From NCBI GenBank assembly GCA_964543865.1, contig CAZIZR010000010.1, positions 15,111 through 79,110 on the forward strand: 64,000 nucleotides of DNA, written 5' to 3'. A program made the translations under genes and the position numbers. Of this stretch, positions 4,456 to 32,855 are shown piece by piece. This DNA is from an uncultured Chloracidobacterium sp. (GTDB taxonomy: Bacteria; Acidobacteriota; Blastocatellia; Pyrinomonadales; Pyrinomonadaceae). The notes under the pieces are model-generated. The model ran no database searches, had not been told where the DNA came from, and worked only from the letters and a program-made list of their open reading frames with translations. Positions within the stretch are counted from its first letter, which is position 1, and each line of letters opens with the position of its first letter.

Positions 4456-5379
4456 ATGAAACGTAATTTTTTGCCGCGACAATTGAAACCCTTGCCCATC
4501 ATACTGGCGATCCTGCTCGCCGGACTAACGGCGTTTTCCCAAGAAAACCAGCCATGGTCGCAAAATACTTCGCCGCTGCCGCCGCCGACCGGTTTTGTCA
4601 ACGATTACGCCGGCGTTATCGACCCGGCGACCAAACAGCAGCTCGAAACCAAGCTCAAAAATCTCAAAGACACAACAAACCCGTCCGTCGAGATAGCCAT
4701 TGCAGTCGTCAAAACGACCGGCGAACGGGCAATTTTCGACTATTCCCTCGCCGTCGCCCGCGGCTGGAAAATTGGAACTGTTGATGACGATAACCCAAGC
4801 GCTCTACTCTTTATCGCTATCGACGACCGCAAATATTTCACACAGGTCAGCAAAGATCTCGAAGACGAGCTACCCGACGGCGTCGTTGGTGGTTTACAGC
4901 GACAATTCCTCGTGCCGGAGTTCAAAAAGGGCAACTACGCCAAGGGCATCAATGACACCATCGACGCCTACATCGCAACCATCCGCGACAAAGGCAATAC
5001 GGCCGGCAAAGCGAATACAGCAAAACCCACTGGCACGGACAGTGGTTCCGGTGGTGCGTTTTTTGGAATATTCTGCTGTGCGGGAATAATTCTGATCGTG
5101 GTCGTTATACTGATAGCCTCACGCGGCAACAAAGGCGGCCCATCCGCCGGTGACCGCAACCGCTGGGGCGGCGGCGGATTTGGCGGCAATCGTAGTAACG
5201 ATGATGTCGCCGGGAACATCGCGTCGGCAGTCATAGGCGGTATTATCGGCTCTGCGCTGTCGGGTGGTAGCTCCTCGAGTTCGTCCAGTGATTGGGGCAG
5301 TTCATCCGGCGGAAGCGATTTTGGCGGCTTCTCTGGCGGAGGTGATTTTGGAGGTGGAGGTTCGGGAGGAGATTGGTAA
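4456..5379 (+). CDS. TPM-domain protein (YgcG-like) with TM segment and Gly/Ser-rich tail
   Basis: Signal peptide, then TGFVNDYAGVIDPATKQQLETKL..., ALLFIAIDDRKYFTQVSKDLEDELPD, then a TM helix and a GGSGGDW-type low-complexity tail. Confidence 0.8.
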   Translation: MKRNFLPRQLKPLPIILAILLAGLTAFSQENQPWSQNTSPLPPPTGFVNDYAGVIDPATKQQLETKLKNLKDTTNPSVEIAIAVVKTTGERAIFDYSLAVARGWKIGTVDDDNPSALLFIAIDDRKYFTQVSKDLEDELPDGVVGGLQRQFLVPEFKKGNYAKGINDTIDAYIATIRDKGNTAGKANTAKPTGTDSGSGGAFFGIFCCAGIILIVVVILIASRGNKGGPSAGDRNRWGGGGFGGNRSNDDVAGNIASAVIGGIIGSALSGGSSSSSSSDWGSSSGGSDFGGFSGGGDFGGGGSGGDW

Positions 5380-14578: not shown

Positions 14579-14701
14579 GCGCCCATAAATTTGCGGCTTT
14601 GCCGCGTCGCAATGCGGCGAGGCTTGCCTCGACGTGACCAACCCCATAAAAACTACTGGAGGCTATGCCTCCAAACGCCGCACCGAACCGGGGACGGACG
14701 G

Positions 14702-14869
14702 AATGGTTCAGGTGCTTCAGCGAATGATTTAGGTACTTCAGCGAATCATTCAGGTGTTTGGGAGAATGGTTCCGTTACGTCACGGAACCATCCAGTTACA
14801 TCACGGAACCATTCTGTTACGTCACAGAATCGTTCTGGTACGACACGGAATCGGCCAGTTACGAACGCG
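14702..14869. repeat. Degenerate tandem repeat, 8 x 21 bp
   Basis: Units start at 14702, 14723, 14744, 14765, 14786, 14807, 14828 and 14849. Examples: aatggttccgttacgtcacgg, aaccatccagttacatcacgg, aaccattctgttacgtcacag. Confidence 0.85.
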
Positions 14870-25340: not shown

Positions 25341-25713
25341 GGGCAGAAACGCGACCGTAAAGAAGCGTGCTTGTCTCCGACCCTAGGCAGAAACGCGACC
25401 GTAAGGAAGCGTGCTGACCGCGGATTGTTTTTACGAACCGTCGGAGACGGTAAAAATATTTGTAGCCCACATCGCAAGATGTGGGTACGGACAAAAACGT
25501 TTGCGTCCGAACCGTCGGAGACGGTGACATAAAGGATCTACAAATACGAATATATGCCGCCGTCGCTGACGGCTCGGGCGATCGATATACCCTAGTCTCC
25601 CACAGTTCGCACTGTGGGCTACAAATATCGCGTCGGCCTCCGCCGACTCAAGCCTCACCGCCTTGCAAAACAGCTTGGATCAGCACGCTCGTTCACACCT
25701 AGCGTTTCTGCCC
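25341..25713. repeat. Nested repeat cluster: R2 left halves (25341, 25386), hairpin-TIR MITE (25459..25625), R2 right half (25683..25713)
   Basis: ggcagaaacgcgaccgtaaRgaagcgtgc occurs twice. tttgtagcccacatcgcaagatgtggg (25459..25485) pairs with cccacagttcgcactgtgggctacaaa (25599..25625). gcacgctcgttcacacctagcgtttctgccc lies at 25683. Confidence 0.7.
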
Positions 25714-25856
25714 ATCGTCCGGACGGCTCTGCCGCATACGCACTGCGGCGAGGGTTCTGGCGTCTGAGCCCGCCAGTGTTGCGGGAACGCCGCAACGAGC
25801 CTCGACGGGACGCTCCCCAAAGAAATAACTAGGAGGGCTACGCCTCCGCTCAAAAC

Positions 25857-25883
25857 AAAAAAACCTCCATCTAAAGATGGAGG
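25857..25883 (-). terminator. Rho-independent terminator of the 25980..26597 gene
   Basis: On the - strand: cctccatc-ttta-gatggagg followed by TTTTTTT. Confidence 0.8.
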
Positions 25884-25979
25884 CAATTGACCGTTTTTCA
25901 TTGTCCACTTTCAATTATCAGTTTTCAGTTTTCAGTTATCAGTTTCCTATTTCCTGTTCACTGTTCACTGTTCACTATT

Positions 25980-26597
25980 TCAGATCGCCCCATAAACCAC
26001 AGCGACGTTCGAAAAGTTTGACACGGACCGTGCCGCGACAGCTCTGACCTTGTACATATAGTATTGGCCGGGCTGGACCGGCGTATCGGTCAGACGCTGG
26101 CGGCGTGTGGTCAAGTGCAGATACCAATCGACCGTGTCGCCGTGACGACGCCAGATCTCGTATATCACACGGCCCGGACGATTGTTGCCGTCAAACCGTA
26201 TCGTGTTCACCCCGTTCGAATAGCCAAAGGCCGACATATTGGTCGGGTCCTGTGCCATATACCGCGTCAATACCAGATCAGGGTAATCAAACCCGGCCTT
26301 GACCCACTCTTTTTCCGGTGCATCGCTTGCCAGCAGCGTGTCGCGAACCTTTTTCAGCAAAGCTGTCACCAGCCGCCGCGTATCGCGTTTTGCACTGACC
26401 GCCGCTCTGCGGTCATCCTCAGCAACCGTCGCCGCAAGTGTCTGCGTCTCAAGCGTCGCCGGCAAAGTGCCAAACTCAGCCGTGAGCGAAGTCTTGACCG
26501 CAGCATCGACCGCCGCCATACCTCCGCCGCCGAGCAACGAAACAACGTTGGCGGCAAACCCCGCCAGATCCAGATCGCCTAATTTTCTAAAATCCAT
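25980..26597 (-). CDS. Hypothetical protein, helical N-terminal half plus FN3-like C-terminal domain
   Basis: 205-aa ORF with host-like GC. C-terminus YEIWRRHGD...PGQYYMYKVRAVAARSVSNFSNV resembles a fibronectin type III fold signature. Has its own terminator. Confidence 0.45.
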   Translation of the reverse strand: MDFRKLGDLDLAGFAANVVSLLGGGGMAAVDAAVKTSLTAEFGTLPATLETQTLAATVAEDDRRAAVSAKRDTRRLVTALLKKVRDTLLASDAPEKEWVKAGFDYPDLVLTRYMAQDPTNMSAFGYSNGVNTIRFDGNNRPGRVIYEIWRRHGDTVDWYLHLTTRRQRLTDTPVQPGQYYMYKVRAVAARSVSNFSNVAVVYGAI

Positions 26598-26745
26598 TTT
26601 GTGTATCTCCTTTTTCTATTGTGATATTTGATATAAGAAACAGACATGTCCATTTCCAAAACAAACATAGCATTAACATATCTCATCTGTCAAGCTCCGT
26701 TTCATAGATAATACATAAAAGAAACACAACAAAAACTGACAAAAC

Positions 26746-26940
26746 TGCGCAATTTCCCTCAAAATTGCGCAATTTTCCCGCAAAACGATATAAAACATTC
26801 GTATTATTGCGCAATTTTCCGGCGGAATTATATCGTTTCTCTGAAAAATTGCGCAATTTTCGGCCAAAATGATATTAAATCGCTAAAAAATTGCGCAAAA
26901 AACCGAAAAAATTGCGCAATTTTCCCGATAAATTGCGCAA
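26746..26940. repeat. Phased array of 7 TTGCGCAA palindromes (iteron/operator/centromere-like)
   Basis: GCGC cores at 26747, 26767, 26809, 26851, 26893, 26914 and 26935, giving spacings of 20, 42, 42, 42, 21 and 21 bp. Most sites extend to aaaattgcgcaattttc. A CGATATA-type motif sits at the midpoint of each 42-bp unit. Confidence 0.85.
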
Positions 26941-27050
26941 TTTTTCGATGATTTTGTACTCGTACTTTTGGGGAATTTACACTTTGGGGCTGTATTTAAC
27001 TACTAACAAGCGAGTTTCGGTCATAATAGAAAAGCCCCGATTTAAATATG

Positions 27051-27078
27051 TTTCAGGCCGCTCGAAAGCGGCCTGAAA
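27051..27078. terminator. Bidirectional-type stem-loop downstream of the DUF2188 gene
   Basis: tttcaggccgct-cgaa-agcggcctgaaa, 10 nt after the stop at 27089. Confidence 0.55.
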
Positions 27079-27088
27079 GCTCTACCGA

Positions 27089-27313
27089 TTAGCCTTTCGG
27101 CGGATACGGATCGTTGCCGTGACTATCAGAACTCTGAATTCGACCATTCATTCCATGAATGACAAACTCGCTGCCCTGATTACGACTGATCTCACGTCCG
27201 ATATCGACCGCTTCGCGCTTGGTATCTGTTACAACAGAAGCCCGCTCGGAACCGCCTCGCCTAACCGCCCATCCTTCTGGATGAGGTACAACATGATGTG
27301 TCTTACGACTCAT
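27089..27313 (-). CDS. DUF2188-like small protein
   Basis: HHVVPHPEGWAVRRGGSERASVVTDTKREAVDIGREISRNQGSEFVIHGMNGRI. RBS aaggagg upstream. Confidence 0.7.
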   Translation of the reverse strand: MSRKTHHVVPHPEGWAVRRGGSERASVVTDTKREAVDIGREISRNQGSEFVIHGMNGRIQSSDSHGNDPYPPKG

Positions 27314-27584
27314 AATGGCAATCCTGCCTCCTTATTACGTGTATTTTTGCGTTGACAGGAGACCGGCAGGCGAGATATTCTTTCGAAGGTAACACCGTCT
27401 GTGGCCTCCAAGCCAACAGATTATGAAGAGGCTGAGTTCGCGAGACTCGGCCTTTTCACGTATAGGTTATATGGTTGCCCTCGCGAAAGTCAATACTTTA
27501 TCTTGTGGTTTTGAAAAAAGTCTTTAATCCCTCTAATTGCAGCATTTAAATGACTTAGCGCGACGTAAAACTTTAGGGAACACC

Positions 27585-29048
27585 TCAATTTGACGATTCT
27601 AAAGCCTCTTTGAGAGCGACTTGAAGCAGGCGATCGGCGTTTTCGATGCCTTGTTTGATGTTTGCTTCCAGTTCGTCGCAAAACTTCATTAGCTTTTCCA
27701 GCTTGGCGACAATCCTTTCTTGTTCGTTTAGTGGCGGAAGTGGAATCGCGTATTTCGATAAAGCCCTTCCGGTGAGATGTTGAATTCCTCCGCCCGTGAA
27801 ATAGTTCGTTAATCTTTTGCTGTTAGCATCGCACAAAAGGCAATAGTAGAGGTATTCGCTTTGCAACGCTCGCTTGTTTGTCCGAACTCGATGCACGGCT
27901 TTTTGAATCTTAATTGGTTGATCGCCTTTCCAAATTGCGGCCCGTCCGGGTTCGCCGCCTTCACAGATTATAAGATCTCCGAAATAGGCTGAATATTTTT
28001 CGTCTTCATCCGGCGTAAACCTCATTTCCTTCAAATCAGACAAATCGAAGCTTCCCCATCGAACATTTACATTTCGTAAATATGGTTGTAATTCGCCCTT
28101 GTTTTTAACTTGGTCAAGCATCTTTCCAAGGCACATTTCGGCTAGATTCCCCAATCGACACCAAACCCAATTTGAAGGGATCTCAAACAGAAGTTCTTCG
28201 GGATTGATCGGCAGTAGAGGTTTGTCTCGTTTGATGCGTTTTTCGGCAATGAGTTTTTCTTTTTCGGACTTTATCTTTTCGAGCAGGATTTCCGCCGGTT
28301 CGTCGGTTGGATCTGGCGGAACGAGCTTTCCTTGCATCGCTTCCCGCAAATACGCTTGCCGAAGCTCTTTGACCAAAGCCAACTGGTGATCGAGTTCGGT
28401 CGAGACTCGGATAATACTTTGTTCCTTGCTGAACAAGGCTTTAAGTTGCTGCGAACAGCCATTGAAAAACTCAGTAGTAGGAATTTTCTTGTTTGCAAAA
28501 ATAGTGTCGAAGTACGCTGATACGCGAAAAGACTCCTCTTTCGAGATCGCAGGAATTTCGAGTTCTCTATATTTTTTCCTTGAAAAATGGCCATGAGTAG
28601 ATGTCTTGATTATGGCCTTGAAATTATTCAGATAAAGGCTCAAATAATAGATGTATCGAGATGAAAAATCTGAATCGAATCTTACTTTCCAAAGGTTCTG
28701 ATTTAACAAGGCTGGTAACACTTCCTTTGAAACCAGTCCGACCTTACCGAGACTTCCACCAACCATTACGATAAGTACATCATCTTCTTTGATAGCAAAA
28801 TTTGATAATTCCTGAATTAGCTTTTCATCGTTTACAAATTTCCTATCATTCTCAGAATCAATTGAACCGTCCGGCTTGATATTCGTAACCCTCAAAACAA
28901 AGCAACCGTCCGTTGTATATTGATGACTCTTAAACGCATAACCGCCTTCAACATCGAAGTCATCTTCGTAGAGCTTCGTTCCACATTTGTTATACAAATA
29001 TTCAAAGACAATTCTTAGTGTTGTGAGAGTTAATTCGTCGTTATACAT
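27585..29048 (-). CDS. hsdS: Type I restriction-modification specificity subunit HsdS (two target-recognition domains)
   Basis: Central conserved helix QLALVKELRQAYLREAMQGKLV and C-terminal LPPLNEQERIVAKLEKLMKFCDELE. 8-nt overlap with hsdM. Confidence 0.9.
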   Translation of the reverse strand: MYNDELTLTTLRIVFEYLYNKCGTKLYEDDFDVEGGYAFKSHQYTTDGCFVLRVTNIKPDGSIDSENDRKFVNDEKLIQELSNFAIKEDDVLIVMVGGSLGKVGLVSKEVLPALLNQNLWKVRFDSDFSSRYIYYLSLYLNNFKAIIKTSTHGHFSRKKYRELEIPAISKEESFRVSAYFDTIFANKKIPTTEFFNGCSQQLKALFSKEQSIIRVSTELDHQLALVKELRQAYLREAMQGKLVPPDPTDEPAEILLEKIKSEKEKLIAEKRIKRDKPLLPINPEELLFEIPSNWVWCRLGNLAEMCLGKMLDQVKNKGELQPYLRNVNVRWGSFDLSDLKEMRFTPDEDEKYSAYFGDLIICEGGEPGRAAIWKGDQPIKIQKAVHRVRTNKRALQSEYLYYCLLCDANSKRLTNYFTGGGIQHLTGRALSKYAIPLPPLNEQERIVAKLEKLMKFCDELEANIKQGIENADRLLQVALKEALESSN

Positions 29049-30465
29049 TTGCGAGATTACTTAACTCCTTCAATACATCAATGTTTTTTGTAAAACTCGT
29101 TTCGAGCAATCCAAGAATTTCTTGGCTTGTATATTCGTGCAAATCTTCCGTCTTGTGCGGATTCTTGATGTCTAAATCATAGTTTCGGGCCTTGATCGTT
29201 TCGATGTGAACCTTCCAGCAAACTTCCGATTCCGTGCGGTTATTCCACCAATCTTTGATCGGCTGAAACTCTTCCGGACGGATCGATTTTGTTTTGCTGT
29301 AACTCTTTTGGCCTTCGGGCAAACGGTGTTCGTAATACCAGATCTCGCGTGTCGGCGTTCCCTTGTCAAAAAACAGCAGATTAGTAGCGACCGTGGCGTA
29401 AGGCTGAAAAACGCTGTTAGGGAGTCGTATGATCGTGTGCAGATTACAATCGGTTAGCAACTTTTCTCGGACACGCTGCTTTACGCCTTCGCCCGAAAGG
29501 CTGCCGTCGGGCAGGACGATCCCTGCACGGCCGCCCATTTTTAGGAGATTGATCATCAAAATCAAAAATAGGTCAGCACTTTCCTTTGTTCGATAGTTCG
29601 CGGGGAAGTTTTTTTCATTGTTGTTAGCAACAACGCCGCCAAAAGGAGGATTTGCGAGTATCACGTTAACCCGATCCATTTCCCGATAAGATGAAAGCGG
29701 CTGTTCCAATGCATCTCGGAAATCAGTATTTGGAACCTCGACATCGTGAATGATCAGATTAGTATTTGCGAGCAAATACGGCAGTGGCTTGTATTCCCAA
29801 CCGGATACATTTTGTTGGATCGCTCGAAGCGTTTCGATGCTGGTATTGTCCTTTCTCAAATGCTCGATAACGCACGTAAGAAAGCCACCCGTTCCCATTG
29901 CAGGATCGAGAACTTTCTCGCCGATCTTCGGATCGACCATTTCAGTTATGAACTGCGTAATAGCTCGCGGGGTGTAAAACTCGCCGCTCTTTCCAGCGCT
30001 TTGCAGATTCTTGAGAATACCTTCGTATATCTCGCCAAAGGCATGGCGTTCTTTGGCAACGTTGAAATCAAGTTCGTTTAGCTTGTTTAGAACTTTGCGG
30101 ATGTTGATTCCGCTTTTCATGTAATTGTTGTTGCCTGAGAAAACGTCGCGGACGATCAGTGCTCGTTTGTTGTTGCCGACGGGCAAACTCCGCAAGGTCG
30201 GGAATAATCTACGGTCGATGAACTCCAACAATTCGTCTCCCGTCATTCCTTCGTCATTTCCTGCCCAATTCTCCCAACGAAATGCTTCGGGAATCGCGGA
30301 GCGATAGCCCTCGTTAAGCAATTCCATTTCCTGCTCTTTGTCACAGTAGATCTTAAAGAACAGCATCCATCCAAGCTGTTCAATTCTCTGCGCGTCACCA
30401 TTAAGACCTGTATCAGGCCACATCAGGTTTTGAATTGATTTCAGAAATCCTGAGAGATTTGCCAT
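29041..30465 (-). CDS. hsdM: Type I restriction-modification N6-adenine DNA methyltransferase HsdM
   Basis: GEFYTPR, VLDPAMGTGGFL (SAM binding), ILANPPFGG (NPPF catalytic motif). Confidence 0.95.
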   Translation of the reverse strand: MANLSGFLKSIQNLMWPDTGLNGDAQRIEQLGWMLFFKIYCDKEQEMELLNEGYRSAIPEAFRWENWAGNDEGMTGDELLEFIDRRLFPTLRSLPVGNNKRALIVRDVFSGNNNYMKSGINIRKVLNKLNELDFNVAKERHAFGEIYEGILKNLQSAGKSGEFYTPRAITQFITEMVDPKIGEKVLDPAMGTGGFLTCVIEHLRKDNTSIETLRAIQQNVSGWEYKPLPYLLANTNLIIHDVEVPNTDFRDALEQPLSSYREMDRVNVILANPPFGGVVANNNEKNFPANYRTKESADLFLILMINLLKMGGRAGIVLPDGSLSGEGVKQRVREKLLTDCNLHTIIRLPNSVFQPYATVATNLLFFDKGTPTREIWYYEHRLPEGQKSYSKTKSIRPEEFQPIKDWWNNRTESEVCWKVHIETIKARNYDLDIKNPHKTEDLHEYTSQEILGLLETSFTKNIDVLKELSNLANV

Positions 30466-30467
30466 AG

Positions 30468-32855
30468 CTATGCAGAAATCCTATAAAGTTCGGTTTCCAA
30501 TGATCTGACAGCCTCGAGGTAATTTTCTCGTCCGCCAAACGTTTTGATTATCTCCACTGGCGAACCAAAACGATCAAACGGAACAACCTTTAGTACATCT
30601 AAGCTCTCAATGTTCTCGACACCTTCATCGGCATACTTTTCAAGTAATGCTTCAAGAACCTGTCGAGCATTGTCGCCATATTTCGTAAAGTAATTACGCT
30701 TCTTGACGTTATTTGCCCTTTCCGCACGAGTCAAAGGCGGCTGGTCGTAGGCGATGTGACAAATTAGGTCAAAGAGATCGAGTTTCTTATCAACTGAATT
30801 TAAAAGCTCGTCAATCGGCACCCCAAGTTTCTCAAGTTCGGTAACGATCGCTTCTTTCTTCTCGGCCTCATTCCACTTATTCAAGAAATCATTCAACGTT
30901 GCAAACTGCTCCCGAACCAAATCGCGTGTGTAGTCGGTCAGCTTTCGTGTGATCGGCTTTCCGTCTTTATCAAAAGCCAATTCACGTGAAACCAAAACAG
31001 AAACGTCAACGCCGTTAATGACAACCTTCTGCCGAGGCACGACACCACAGACCGAGTCAGGAGTACGAATCTCAGGCGGAACAAACTCAACCTCTTCTTC
31101 GGTTACATCGTCGATGATCGGTGTATCATCGGACTGTTCGTCGTCAATTAGAGTAGATAGATCGTCGTCCTCAGTGAGTTCCTTAATTCGAATTGGATCG
31201 CCATCAAAATCTTTGTCTGCGAAAAGGTCGGTCACATTTCGGAAATCAAGGATCGTGAAATAGAACTTATCGTACTCAGCATTTATGCGTGTTCCGCGAC
31301 CAATGATCTGTTTGAATTTGATCATCGAATTGATATTCGAATCAAGAACGATAACCTTGCACGTCTGAGCATCAATACCCGTTGTCATCAGTTCCGACGT
31401 TGTGGCGATCACCGGAAAACTCTCTTGAGGGTCGGTAAAATTCTCAAGCTCTCGCTTGCCGTCAAGATCGTCGCCCGTGATCTTCATCACGTATTTGTAG
31501 TTTGCTGCGACGAGGTCGGAGTTCTCTTTCGCAAGTTCCGAACGCATTCGTTCGGCGTGGTCGATATCAACACAGAAAACAATTGTTTTCGCGTACCGGT
31601 CAAAGCCCTTTAGAAACTCACTCACCTTTTTTGCGACAAGCGATGTTCGTTCTTCAATTACAAGGGTTCGGTCATAGTCCTTTCTATTGTAGATACGGTC
31701 TTCGACAAGTTCACCCTCAACATCTTTCTTTCCGAGCTCCGGCCTGTAGCCTTCGAGATCAACATTGGTTCCGATTCGCACAACTCGGTAAGGAGCGAGA
31801 AAGCCGTCATCGATTCCCTGCTTCAACGAATATGTGTAAATCGGATCACCAAAGTACTCGATGTTGCTCTCGACCTTGGTTTCCTTTGGCGTTGCCGTCA
31901 GACCGATCTGAGTAGCCGATTTGAAATATCGTAAGATCTCGTGCCAAGACTTGTCCTCATTGATGCTGCCGCGATGACACTCATCGACAATAATTAGGTC
32001 GAAAAACTCAGGCGAGAACTGCTGAAATATCTTACGGTCAGGCTCCGCTCCCGTTAAACCTTGGTATAGAGCGAGATAAACCTCGTATGATTTGTCCACC
32101 TTGTGATTTTGGACCACTGTCATACGGTCTTTGAAATGTTTGAAATCATTTCTCCGAGCTTGATCTATCAAGGCCGTGCGATCTGCGAGAAATAAGATGC
32201 GCTTTTTAGCACCGGCTTTCCATAATCTGTGGGCGATTTGAAATGCGGTGTAGGTCTTGCCAGTGCCAGTCGCCATAACAAGCAAGACTCGATTTTCTCC
32301 AGTAGCAATCGCTTCGATAGTGCGGTTGATCGCAACTTGTTGATAATATCGAGGCTTTCGTCCACTTCCATCGTCGTAGTAATCCTGTTCGACGATTCTT
32401 GTTTCATCTTGAGTAACGATGCCCTTAAAGTTCTTATACTTTTCCCAGAGTGCTTCCGGGCTTGGAAAATTCTCGTTGTCGAGAATTGTCTCAATCTGAT
32501 CTCCGCTTGCCGTCTTATCATGAAAGACAAATCCATCACCGTTGCTACTGAAGACAAATGGTATGTCGAGAATCTGCGAGTAATCTAAAGCCTGCTGTAA
32601 TCCTGAGTGAATCGAATGCTTGTTATCTTTCGCCTCGATGATCGCGATAGGAATATTCGGTTTGAAATAAAGAATGTAATCCGCACGTTTAGCCGTTCCG
32701 CGCATATGCAGTCGGCCTTTTACAAGAATCTTGCCGTCAGTAAAGGAAACTTCCTCAAGAAGCTGAGTTTGCACATCCCAACCCGCCGCCACTACAGCGG
32801 GAGTTATGAACTTTGTGCAGATATCGCGCTCTGAGAGAGATTTCTTATCGACCAT
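30468..32855 (-). CDS. hsdR: Type I restriction enzyme endonuclease/translocase subunit HsdR
   Basis: N-terminal nuclease region (ADYILY...IIEAK), helicase motifs MATGTGKT, DECHR, LTATP and QIIGRGTR. Confidence 0.95.
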   Translation of the reverse strand: MVDKKSLSERDICTKFITPAVVAAGWDVQTQLLEEVSFTDGKILVKGRLHMRGTAKRADYILYFKPNIPIAIIEAKDNKHSIHSGLQQALDYSQILDIPFVFSSNGDGFVFHDKTASGDQIETILDNENFPSPEALWEKYKNFKGIVTQDETRIVEQDYYDDGSGRKPRYYQQVAINRTIEAIATGENRVLLVMATGTGKTYTAFQIAHRLWKAGAKKRILFLADRTALIDQARRNDFKHFKDRMTVVQNHKVDKSYEVYLALYQGLTGAEPDRKIFQQFSPEFFDLIIVDECHRGSINEDKSWHEILRYFKSATQIGLTATPKETKVESNIEYFGDPIYTYSLKQGIDDGFLAPYRVVRIGTNVDLEGYRPELGKKDVEGELVEDRIYNRKDYDRTLVIEERTSLVAKKVSEFLKGFDRYAKTIVFCVDIDHAERMRSELAKENSDLVAANYKYVMKITGDDLDGKRELENFTDPQESFPVIATTSELMTTGIDAQTCKVIVLDSNINSMIKFKQIIGRGTRINAEYDKFYFTILDFRNVTDLFADKDFDGDPIRIKELTEDDDLSTLIDDEQSDDTPIIDDVTEEEVEFVPPEIRTPDSVCGVVPRQKVVINGVDVSVLVSRELAFDKDGKPITRKLTDYTRDLVREQFATLNDFLNKWNEAEKKEAIVTELEKLGVPIDELLNSVDKKLDLFDLICHIAYDQPPLTRAERANNVKKRNYFTKYGDNARQVLEALLEKYADEGVENIESLDVLKVVPFDRFGSPVEIIKTFGGRENYLEAVRSLETELYRISA

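Follow-up and report, generated by a model that had tools for sequence, protein, structure and literature searches.

A tandem array of ten 21-bp units at 26739..26947 of the analyzed 64-kb stretch of DNA (hereafter, the window) is probably a chromosomal, helically phased, pre-bent cis-regulatory element that lies upstream of the promoter of a gene encoding a 205-aa protein. Control of transcription is its most likely function, as judged from sequence comparisons. The initial annotation had offered three readings of this region: an iteron origin, a sopC-like centromere, or a multi-operator region controlling the gene at 25980..26597. Our results support that annotation in part. They favor the last reading, since the array stands beside the conserved promoter of this gene in eight of 11 lineages, which suggests a regulatory region.

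Architecture and predicted curvature of the array

The palindrome TTGCGCAA occurs exactly six times in the 64-kb window, at 26765, 26807, 26849, 26891, 26912, and 26933, and nowhere outside the array. Seven copies had been reported initially; there are indeed seven sites, six of them exact and one, at 26745, reading CTGCGCAA with a single mismatch. The distances between successive GCGC centers are 20, 42, 42, 42, 21, and 21 bp, exactly as first described. Searching the window with the 14-mer AAATTGCGCAATTT at up to two mismatches returned six sites, all within the array. The copy at 26888-26901 was matched only at three mismatches, and all seven copies lie inside the array; the sole matches elsewhere in the 64 kb also carry three mismatches. 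For six random sites to fall within 176 bp of 64 kb, P is ~1e-12.

Motif searching and stacking in a 21-nt register resolved the array into units U1 to U10 (no strand assigned), each consisting of A4, an 8-bp GC-core palindrome, T4, and a GC-rich linker of ~5 bp. The core is CTGCGCAA in U1 (26745-26752) and TTGCGCAA in U2 (26765-26772), U4 (26807-26814), U6 (26849-26856), U8 (26891-26898), U9 (26912-26919), and U10 (26933-26940). The cores of U3 (26785-26792), U5 (26828-26835), and U7 (26869-26876) are AT-rich and degenerate. Within units, AT-rich blocks of ~6 bp (AAAATT or AATTTT) alternate with GC-rich blocks of 4-5 bp (GCGC or CCGGC) every ~10.5 bp. Identity at lags of 21, 42, and 63 was 0.48 in the array versus 0.27 in shuffles (z = 12).

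A second motif had been proposed halfway between the palindromes (cgatata at 26786, tatatcg at 26829, and tgatatt at 26870). Its coordinates and its midway position are correct. At the U5 and U7 positions, the cores of relatives are CGATCGCA or CGTTCGCG, and U3 reads GATA(T/C)A in all four aligned loci. Because relatives have GC cores at U5 and U7, the midway motifs are degenerate 21-bp units, not a separate motif, and the array comprises ~10 x 21 bp. The true period is thus 21 bp, and degeneracy of every other unit gives rise to the 42-bp spacing. Unit stacking and the relatives therefore replace the earlier scheme of three 42-bp plus three 21-bp repeats. The claim that the sites all lie on the same face of the helix was right, and this 21-bp phasing is the key feature of the array.

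Two repeat classes were considered and rejected. A CRISPR array has spacers, and here the 21-bp units abut without any. A MITE or REP element does not fit a motif that is found nowhere else in the 64 kb and at two loci per genome in a relative. Being periodic and dyad-symmetric, the array also forms long quasi-palindromes at 26750-26871, for example one with 61-nt arms, 72% complementarity, and no spacer; these could extrude cruciforms if the DNA were negatively supercoiled.

Curvature was calculated from dinucleotide wedges with two parameter sets from the literature (Bolshoy-Trifonov 1991 and De Santis), and the calculation was validated by in-script controls, in which phased A6 tracts and A4T4 were curved and T4A4 and out-of-phase tracts were straight. 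For 26740-26950, the two models predicted 17.6-21.3 degrees per helical turn and a total turning of 309-371 degrees, which is approximately a full circle, with an end-to-end/contour ratio of 0.24-0.37. At 18-22 degrees per turn, the array is the maximum of predicted curvature among 200-bp segments across the 64 kb, for which the median was 5.4-6.7 degrees per turn, and composition shuffles of the array gave 6-7 +/- 1 degrees per turn. When periods of 16-26 bp were compared, end-to-end compaction was tightest at 21 bp, and other unit lengths destroyed it. By these wedge models, the array has the phased A/T tracts of intrinsically curved upstream DNA. Given that AT and GC blocks alternate every ~10.5 bp, the predicted bends sum in one plane to about one full turn over ~200 bp. 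The phased A/T tracts and the extreme predicted curvature go beyond what the initial annotation had described.

Association with the 205-aa gene and its promoter

The gene next to the array (25980..26597, minus strand) encodes a protein of 205 aa in which a helical N-terminal domain (residues 8-101) is followed by an FN3-like sandwich at the C terminus, as indicated by its homologues and by an AF2 model (pLDDT 90.9) in which long N-terminal helices precede the FN3 sandwich. The protein matched no Pfam or PHROG family, and structural neighbors were found for the FN3 domain only. All 109 homologues are ~205 aa long and none has a Pfam domain; the few with a named source are from Acidobacteria. 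The helical domain is acidic across the family (median pI 5.3), so autoregulation by the 205-aa protein is unsupported, and the protein was dropped as a candidate binder of the array. A bZIP-like stretch, RRAAVSAKR, is a superficial resemblance that is not conserved in the family alignment. The gene has an RBS (GGAGAT) at 26605-26610, and an intrinsic-terminator-like hairpin with a T run lies downstream at 25863..25884 on the minus strand.

Heptamer tandem repeats directly follow the stop codon of this gene and precede the terminator, at 25909-25976 of the window; in the mRNA sense they read GTGAACA x3 and then ~8 GAAAACT-like units. Heptamers are found at the same place in two relatives, AGTAGTC x6 in L115 (10626-10669) and (G/A)AGCAGT x8 plus GGAAGNN x4 in L113 (just after 6618). 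Their sequence is lineage-specific, and the other lineages examined have none.

The array begins 148 bp and ends 343 bp upstream of the 205-aa gene and abuts a low-GC type I restriction-modification (R-M) island, confirming the placement given initially. Consensus scanning and alignment predicted a sigma70-like promoter on the minus strand (26664..26693), with TTGACA at 26693-26688, a TG followed by an 18-nt spacer, and TATGTT at 26669-26664. The array is ~45 bp upstream of the predicted -35 and reaches to approximately -290. In an alignment of eight upstream regions, TTGACA and a TAnnnT -10 element, with a spacer of 17/18, were conserved in most of the eight lineages. A sigma54 promoter was rejected after inspection by eye of the window and L040, where no GG-N10-GC was present at the proper spacing. 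The same alignment revealed a 16-bp promoter-proximal palindrome just upstream of the -35 (26699..26714, minus strand), with the consensus GTTTCAC-N2-4-(G)TGAAAC. It is degenerate in the window and is found in most lineages, including those without an array. It resembles a pair of parS half-sites separated by a longer spacer and probably constitutes an operator in its own right.

Scanning of genome collections identified homologous arrays in metagenome-assembled genomes of Chloracidobacterium sp., and one relative has two such loci. L040/L115 is the syntenic orthologue of the window locus, with gyrA, a PilZ gene, a Ser/Thr kinase gene, and the 205-aa gene (86% identity). The Chloracidobacterium sp. 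label on homologues at this 86% identity, together with the synteny, suggests the same lineage for the window. L042, on the same contig as L040, and L037 represent a second, paralogous locus, in which the same ~300-bp block precedes an FG-GAP gene by 330 bp and genes for large repeat proteins come after that gene. One relative's genome thus carries the ~300-bp block at two loci, beside the 205-aa gene and the FG-GAP gene, respectively. The four copies (window, L040, L042, and L037) align colinearly unit by unit. Array identity was 83% between paralogous copies within one genome and 70% between the orthologous window and L040 copies, versus 30-64% in the flanks.

The conserved block exceeds the array and extends from ~26678 to 27005. 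Identity by region in the alignment delimited a distal flank (26948..27005, no strand assigned), which begins with GATTTTGTACTCGTACTTTTGGGG, has T-tracts every ~10-11 bp, and is partly conserved in the orthologous and paralogous copies; its AAAAGTAC motif is also present in L110. Similarity to relatives stops at ~27005, which we take as the junction with the R-M island on the basis of this alignment.

The comparison was extended to 11 lineages that have the 205-aa gene, down to 47% protein identity. In eight of them, a ~200-bp array with a 21-bp period lies upstream of the gene, a fixed linkage to orthologous promoters such as is expected of an upstream operator array. Periodicity at 21/42/63 nt was strong in the window, L115, L110, L111/L112, L114, L120, and L121 (z = 10-14 against shuffles) and weaker in L118/L119 (z = 6.9). 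By this periodicity test, no array is present upstream of the 205-aa gene in L113, L116, and L122; since these three lineages retain the gene and its promoter, the array is dispensable. In L113 and L116, this promoter is directly adjoined by an hsdR gene. The array is also the predicted curvature peak of its own locus (200 bp) in L115, L110, L111, L112, L114, L042, and L037, and the peak is not at the corresponding site in L118 or in L113 and L116, which have no array.

What stays constant across lineages is the 21-bp period, the number of units (~7-11), and the phased A/T tracts; the core sequence varies. The cores found were TTGCGCAA, CTGCGCAG, CGGCGCAG/CCATATGG/CGCGCGCG, TGCATGCA, TATATA, TTCGAA, and the non-palindromic TTTTTCTTCG. 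In five or six lineages the core is a perfect dyad, and in L121 the repeats are direct and non-palindromic. The register is held with almost no indels across the compared arrays. Strains L111 and L112 have equal unit numbers and differ by point changes only, which indicates that the array is not phase-variable and is not a contingency repeat. The distance from the array to the -35 ranges from ~20 to ~330 bp among lineages, which is hard to reconcile with strict face-of-helix contact by an activator.

These patterns bear on a purely structural reading, in which curvature alone would matter, whether by holding the DNA in a static bend or loop, by acting as a topological barrier, or by nucleating nucleoid proteins, and no sequence-specific binder would be involved; unit duplication and homogenization would then have generated the palindromic cores incidentally. 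We regard this as possible but not likely. The period and the A/T tracts are the best-conserved features (between the window and L040, identity was 0.83 at A-tract, 0.81 at T-tract, 0.75 at GCGC, and 0.51 at linker positions), the cores drift by lineage, the repeats of L121 lack palindromes, the promoter distance is variable, and the predicted curvature is comparable to that of designed A-tract DNA. Against it, the 8-bp core is near-identical in most units and in both paralogous copies, with an identity between L040 and L042 of 0.92 at the GCGC center and 0.83 at the outer core positions. Curvature, moreover, needs no dyad, and the dyad is perfect in the five or six lineages mentioned above.

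It is very unlikely that the array is a neutral minisatellite, acts at the RNA level, or encodes a small repeat protein. The palindromes could form RNA hairpins, and gene callers do annotate ORFs over the arrays, as in L115 (9615-9935), L110 (5375-5896), L112 (49-705), and the start of 3930-5687 in L111. Such ORFs are called because 21 nt equals 7 codons, and these calls and N-terminal extensions are probably artefacts of the stop-poor 7-codon periodicity. Coding potential was rejected since no ORF of the window spans the array and the strand and frame of the called ORFs vary from locus to locus. A search of 25700-27700 against Rfam at a permissive E-value gave only chance matches, with no family reaching threshold, and phased A/T tracts are a property of double-stranded DNA. 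Register and unit number held over deep divergence argue against a minisatellite. Spurious ORFs placed by gene callers over arrays of 7-codon periodicity call for caution in annotation.

Genes of the FG-GAP type adjoin the 205-aa gene in L110, L118/L119, L120, and L121, being divergent in L110, L118/L119, and L120 and convergent in L121, and an RHS gene follows the FG-GAP gene in L110 and L118/L119. This adjacency across lineages suggests the ancestral order FG-GAP(-RHS) <- array -> 205-aa gene. Comparison of the loci further indicates that Chloracidobacterium-type genomes appear to have split this ancestral locus in two and retained a copy of the array at each.

A proposed regulatory role and its relation to known systems

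We propose that the pre-bent DNA, with palindromic GC cores on one face, would serve as the platform for the function of the array. A dimeric DNA-binding protein may bind it cooperatively or be wrapped by it; alternatively, the array may wrap around RNA polymerase or a nucleoid protein. The bound or wrapped array would set, upward or downward, the activity of the adjacent promoter or promoters, on one or both flanks, and may by looping bring the promoter-proximal palindrome near sequences beyond its far side. Ancestrally, the other side of the array would have been occupied by the divergent FG-GAP/RHS operon. In the loci compared, no candidate binder gene is consistently linked to the array. 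The variable promoter distance, the loss of the array in three lineages, and the lack of a linked binder argue against a simple activator model.

A more specific and tentative form of this proposal, to which we give a low probability, is that the array represents an undescribed class of cis-element, a "static DNA loop" with conserved geometry and drifting sequence. Its ~200 bp would form approximately one closed turn, physically couple the divergent promoters of the helical+FN3 and FG-GAP/RHS genes, and seat a ring- or filament-forming protein with a specificity that would co-evolve with the palindromic core.

Both phased A-tract enhancers and operator arrays with multiple sites have been described before. 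Phased upstream A-tract repeats act as promoter enhancers in the Mannheimia leukotoxin (lkt) promoter (PMC2697988), and the curved-DNA enhancer work cited in that paper includes Aiyar et al. 1998, C. perfringens plc, and the A/T-tract bend of K. pneumoniae nifLA. Compared with these enhancers, the present array has ten 21-bp units reaching to approximately -290, each with a GC-core palindrome, its unit number is stable and not phase-variable, and the models predict bending through about a full circle. Despite turnover of the sequence, the geometry is also retained within a gene family in which protein identity falls to 47%.

Activator dimers are arrayed cooperatively along one face of the helix in the case of BvgA at the Bordetella ptx and fha promoters and at 7-2-7 sites of the NarL/FixJ type. 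The array is like these in having, upstream of the -35, a long series of dyads spaced by about two helical turns, and unlike them in its greater number of sites, its pre-bending by A/T tracts, and a promoter distance that varies by lineage. The alternation of 6-bp AT and 4-5-bp GC blocks in each half unit, which favors tight planar wrapping, is like that of nucleosome-positioning DNA. The host here, in contrast, is bacterial, and we know of no histone-like partner in this lineage.

Literature searches for this array family found no description of it. Publications on TTGCGCAA mostly concern a eukaryotic C/EBP site, with no bacterial system found, and those on curved, repeat-containing promoters yielded general analogues only, none for Acidobacteria. 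The array is distinctive in combining ten 21-bp GC-core dyad units, a predicted bend of nearly a full circle, and a geometry kept while the sequence turns over, in one Acidobacteria gene family. The regulatory DNA of Acidobacteria is almost unexplored. Since the shape parameters (period, ~10 units, A/T tracts, and ~360 degrees of predicted turning) are kept while the bases turn over, the array offers a clean natural test of shape versus base read-out in bacterial transcription control. Attention is also drawn to an unstudied, widely conserved pairing of the 205-aa helical+FN3 protein with FG-GAP/RHS proteins, as well as a locus of repeated insertion of defence islands.

Chromosomal context and neighboring elements

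Pfam scanning of 49 ORFs of the window identified housekeeping genes (dnaX, ruvA, ruvB, gyrA, aroB, a phosphoglucosamine mutase-type gene, moeA, and uvrA), which indicate that the replicon is chromosomal. No Rep, ParA/ParB, or integrase was found among these 49 ORFs and no HTH gene near the array, in agreement with the initial annotation, which had seen no Rep, Par, or HTH gene nearby and had suggested looking for Rep or ParB-like genes elsewhere on the replicon. Cumulative GC skew is monotonic across the window and hence shows no origin signature. The conserved block gave 0 blastn matches against 72,556 plasmids and 50,697 phages, and the 205-aa family was absent from the viral contigs and PHROGs searched.

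These results weigh against a plasmid- or phage-type iteron origin, or a centromere of the sopC or parC type, bound by a Rep or a ParB/ParR-type protein encoded elsewhere. In form, the array is similar to the lambda ori iterons and to type II parC, which share ~20-bp units, two-turn spacing, palindromic cores, and strong bending. The lambda ori iterons (O-some) are palindromic units in an intrinsically bent region that is wrapped by protein, and the array is like lambda and plasmid iterons in its ~19-22-bp units at two-turn spacing. The ten 21-bp units do fall within the 17-22 bp expected of iteron direct repeats at about two-turn spacing, a property that alone is not specific. A linked rep gene, DnaA boxes, and an AT-rich unwinding element were not found, and by eye no TTATCCACA-type boxes are present beside the array. 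Unlike iteron origins, the array is chromosomal and syntenic, has no initiator gene or adjacent AT-rich unwinding region with DnaA boxes, and in one relative is present in two copies per genome, each beside a specific structural gene.

Among centromeres, sopC of the F plasmid has a 43-bp period and lies beside sopAB, and parC (R1, pSK41) has iterons of 10-11 or 20 bp beside parMR; parC is also the operator of a promoter, and its complex is bent into a ring-like shape. The array is like both in being a tandem array with dyads. Unlike them, it has no par genes among the 49 ORFs scanned, and its 42-bp appearance reflects degenerate alternate units; neither repeats of ~43 bp nor adjacent parA/parB genes on a plasmid or phage replicon were found. 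In addition, the array has kept its synteny with a single gene family across deep divergence, although its core sequence has changed. Taken with the 21-bp period, the chromosomal location, and the lack of plasmid or phage similarity, these observations make the origin and centromere readings of the initial annotation extremely unlikely.

One further point in favor of an origin or centromere is that unrelated metagenomic and viral contigs bear arrays of the same palindrome. Pattern scans of viral and metagenomic sequences found many TTGCGCAA arrays at other periods (10, 24, 33, and 45 bp; L068, L109, L070, and L019), and the array of L019 falls inside a coding repeat. By nhmmer, none of these viral or metagenomic arrays is homologous to the conserved block, and we treated these arrays as unrelated. 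Among unrelated contigs, TTGCGCAA arrays with periods of 24, 21/42, and 10 bp were seen in L109 (613-1095), L079 (768-860), L068 (9541-9578), and L061 (874-1252), and L058 has a TTGCGCAA operator pair overlapping a TTGACA promoter (4529-4557). From these occurrences, TTGCGCAA appears to be a simple palindrome used by many different systems.

The array lies between two minus-strand genes and adjoins, on its distal side, a low-GC defence island (27089..32855, minus strand; GC 41-47% versus ~52%), in which Pfam identified DUF2188, hsdS, hsdM, and hsdR (type I R-M). A perfect inverted repeat with a 12-bp stem (27051..27078, minus strand), downstream of the DUF2188 gene, stands at the end of the transcription unit of the island and separates it from the array. 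The island is an insertion and not part of the element; in this genome it is the distal neighbor of the array.

Upstream of the 205-aa gene, four lineages have different defence islands, namely type I R-M plus DUF2188 in the window (27089-32855), HATPase/Z1/DUF4420/AIPR at the same place in L115 (2554-9441), AAA_15 plus a long HsdR-like gene in L113 (1-5808), and a Dam-like methyltransferase plus HsdR in L116 (858-4861). This side of the gene therefore looks like an insertion hotspot for defence islands. On that ground, the array or its complex might be a landing pad or boundary for such islands, serving as their target or attachment site, a role that we consider quite unlikely. In these four lineages, the 205-aa gene does have defence genes directly on its array side. 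Nevertheless, arrays are present without an island there in L110, L111, L114, L118, L120, and L121, neither an integrase or transposase nor a second copy of the motif at the other end of the island was found, and in two of the four lineages with an island (L113 and L116) the array has been lost and does not flank it. A structural role and a role as a defence-island hotspot are the remaining, lesser rivals of the regulatory reading.

The strongest lag-21 signal of the window comes from a second, unrelated tandem array at 14701-14863, with ~8 units of 21 bp that are GGAAYSRTTCNGKTACNTCAC-like. It is GC-rich, lacks A-tract phasing, and sits among hairpins in the convergent intergenic region of a CarboxypepD_reg gene and gyrA; it is absent from the syntenic L115 locus and had no Rfam match. 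Elsewhere in the window, an ORF at 69-1184, in a stretch of 39.5% GC, has a reverse-transcriptase domain (RVT_1) and could encode the reverse transcriptase of a group II intron, a retron, or a DGR-type element.
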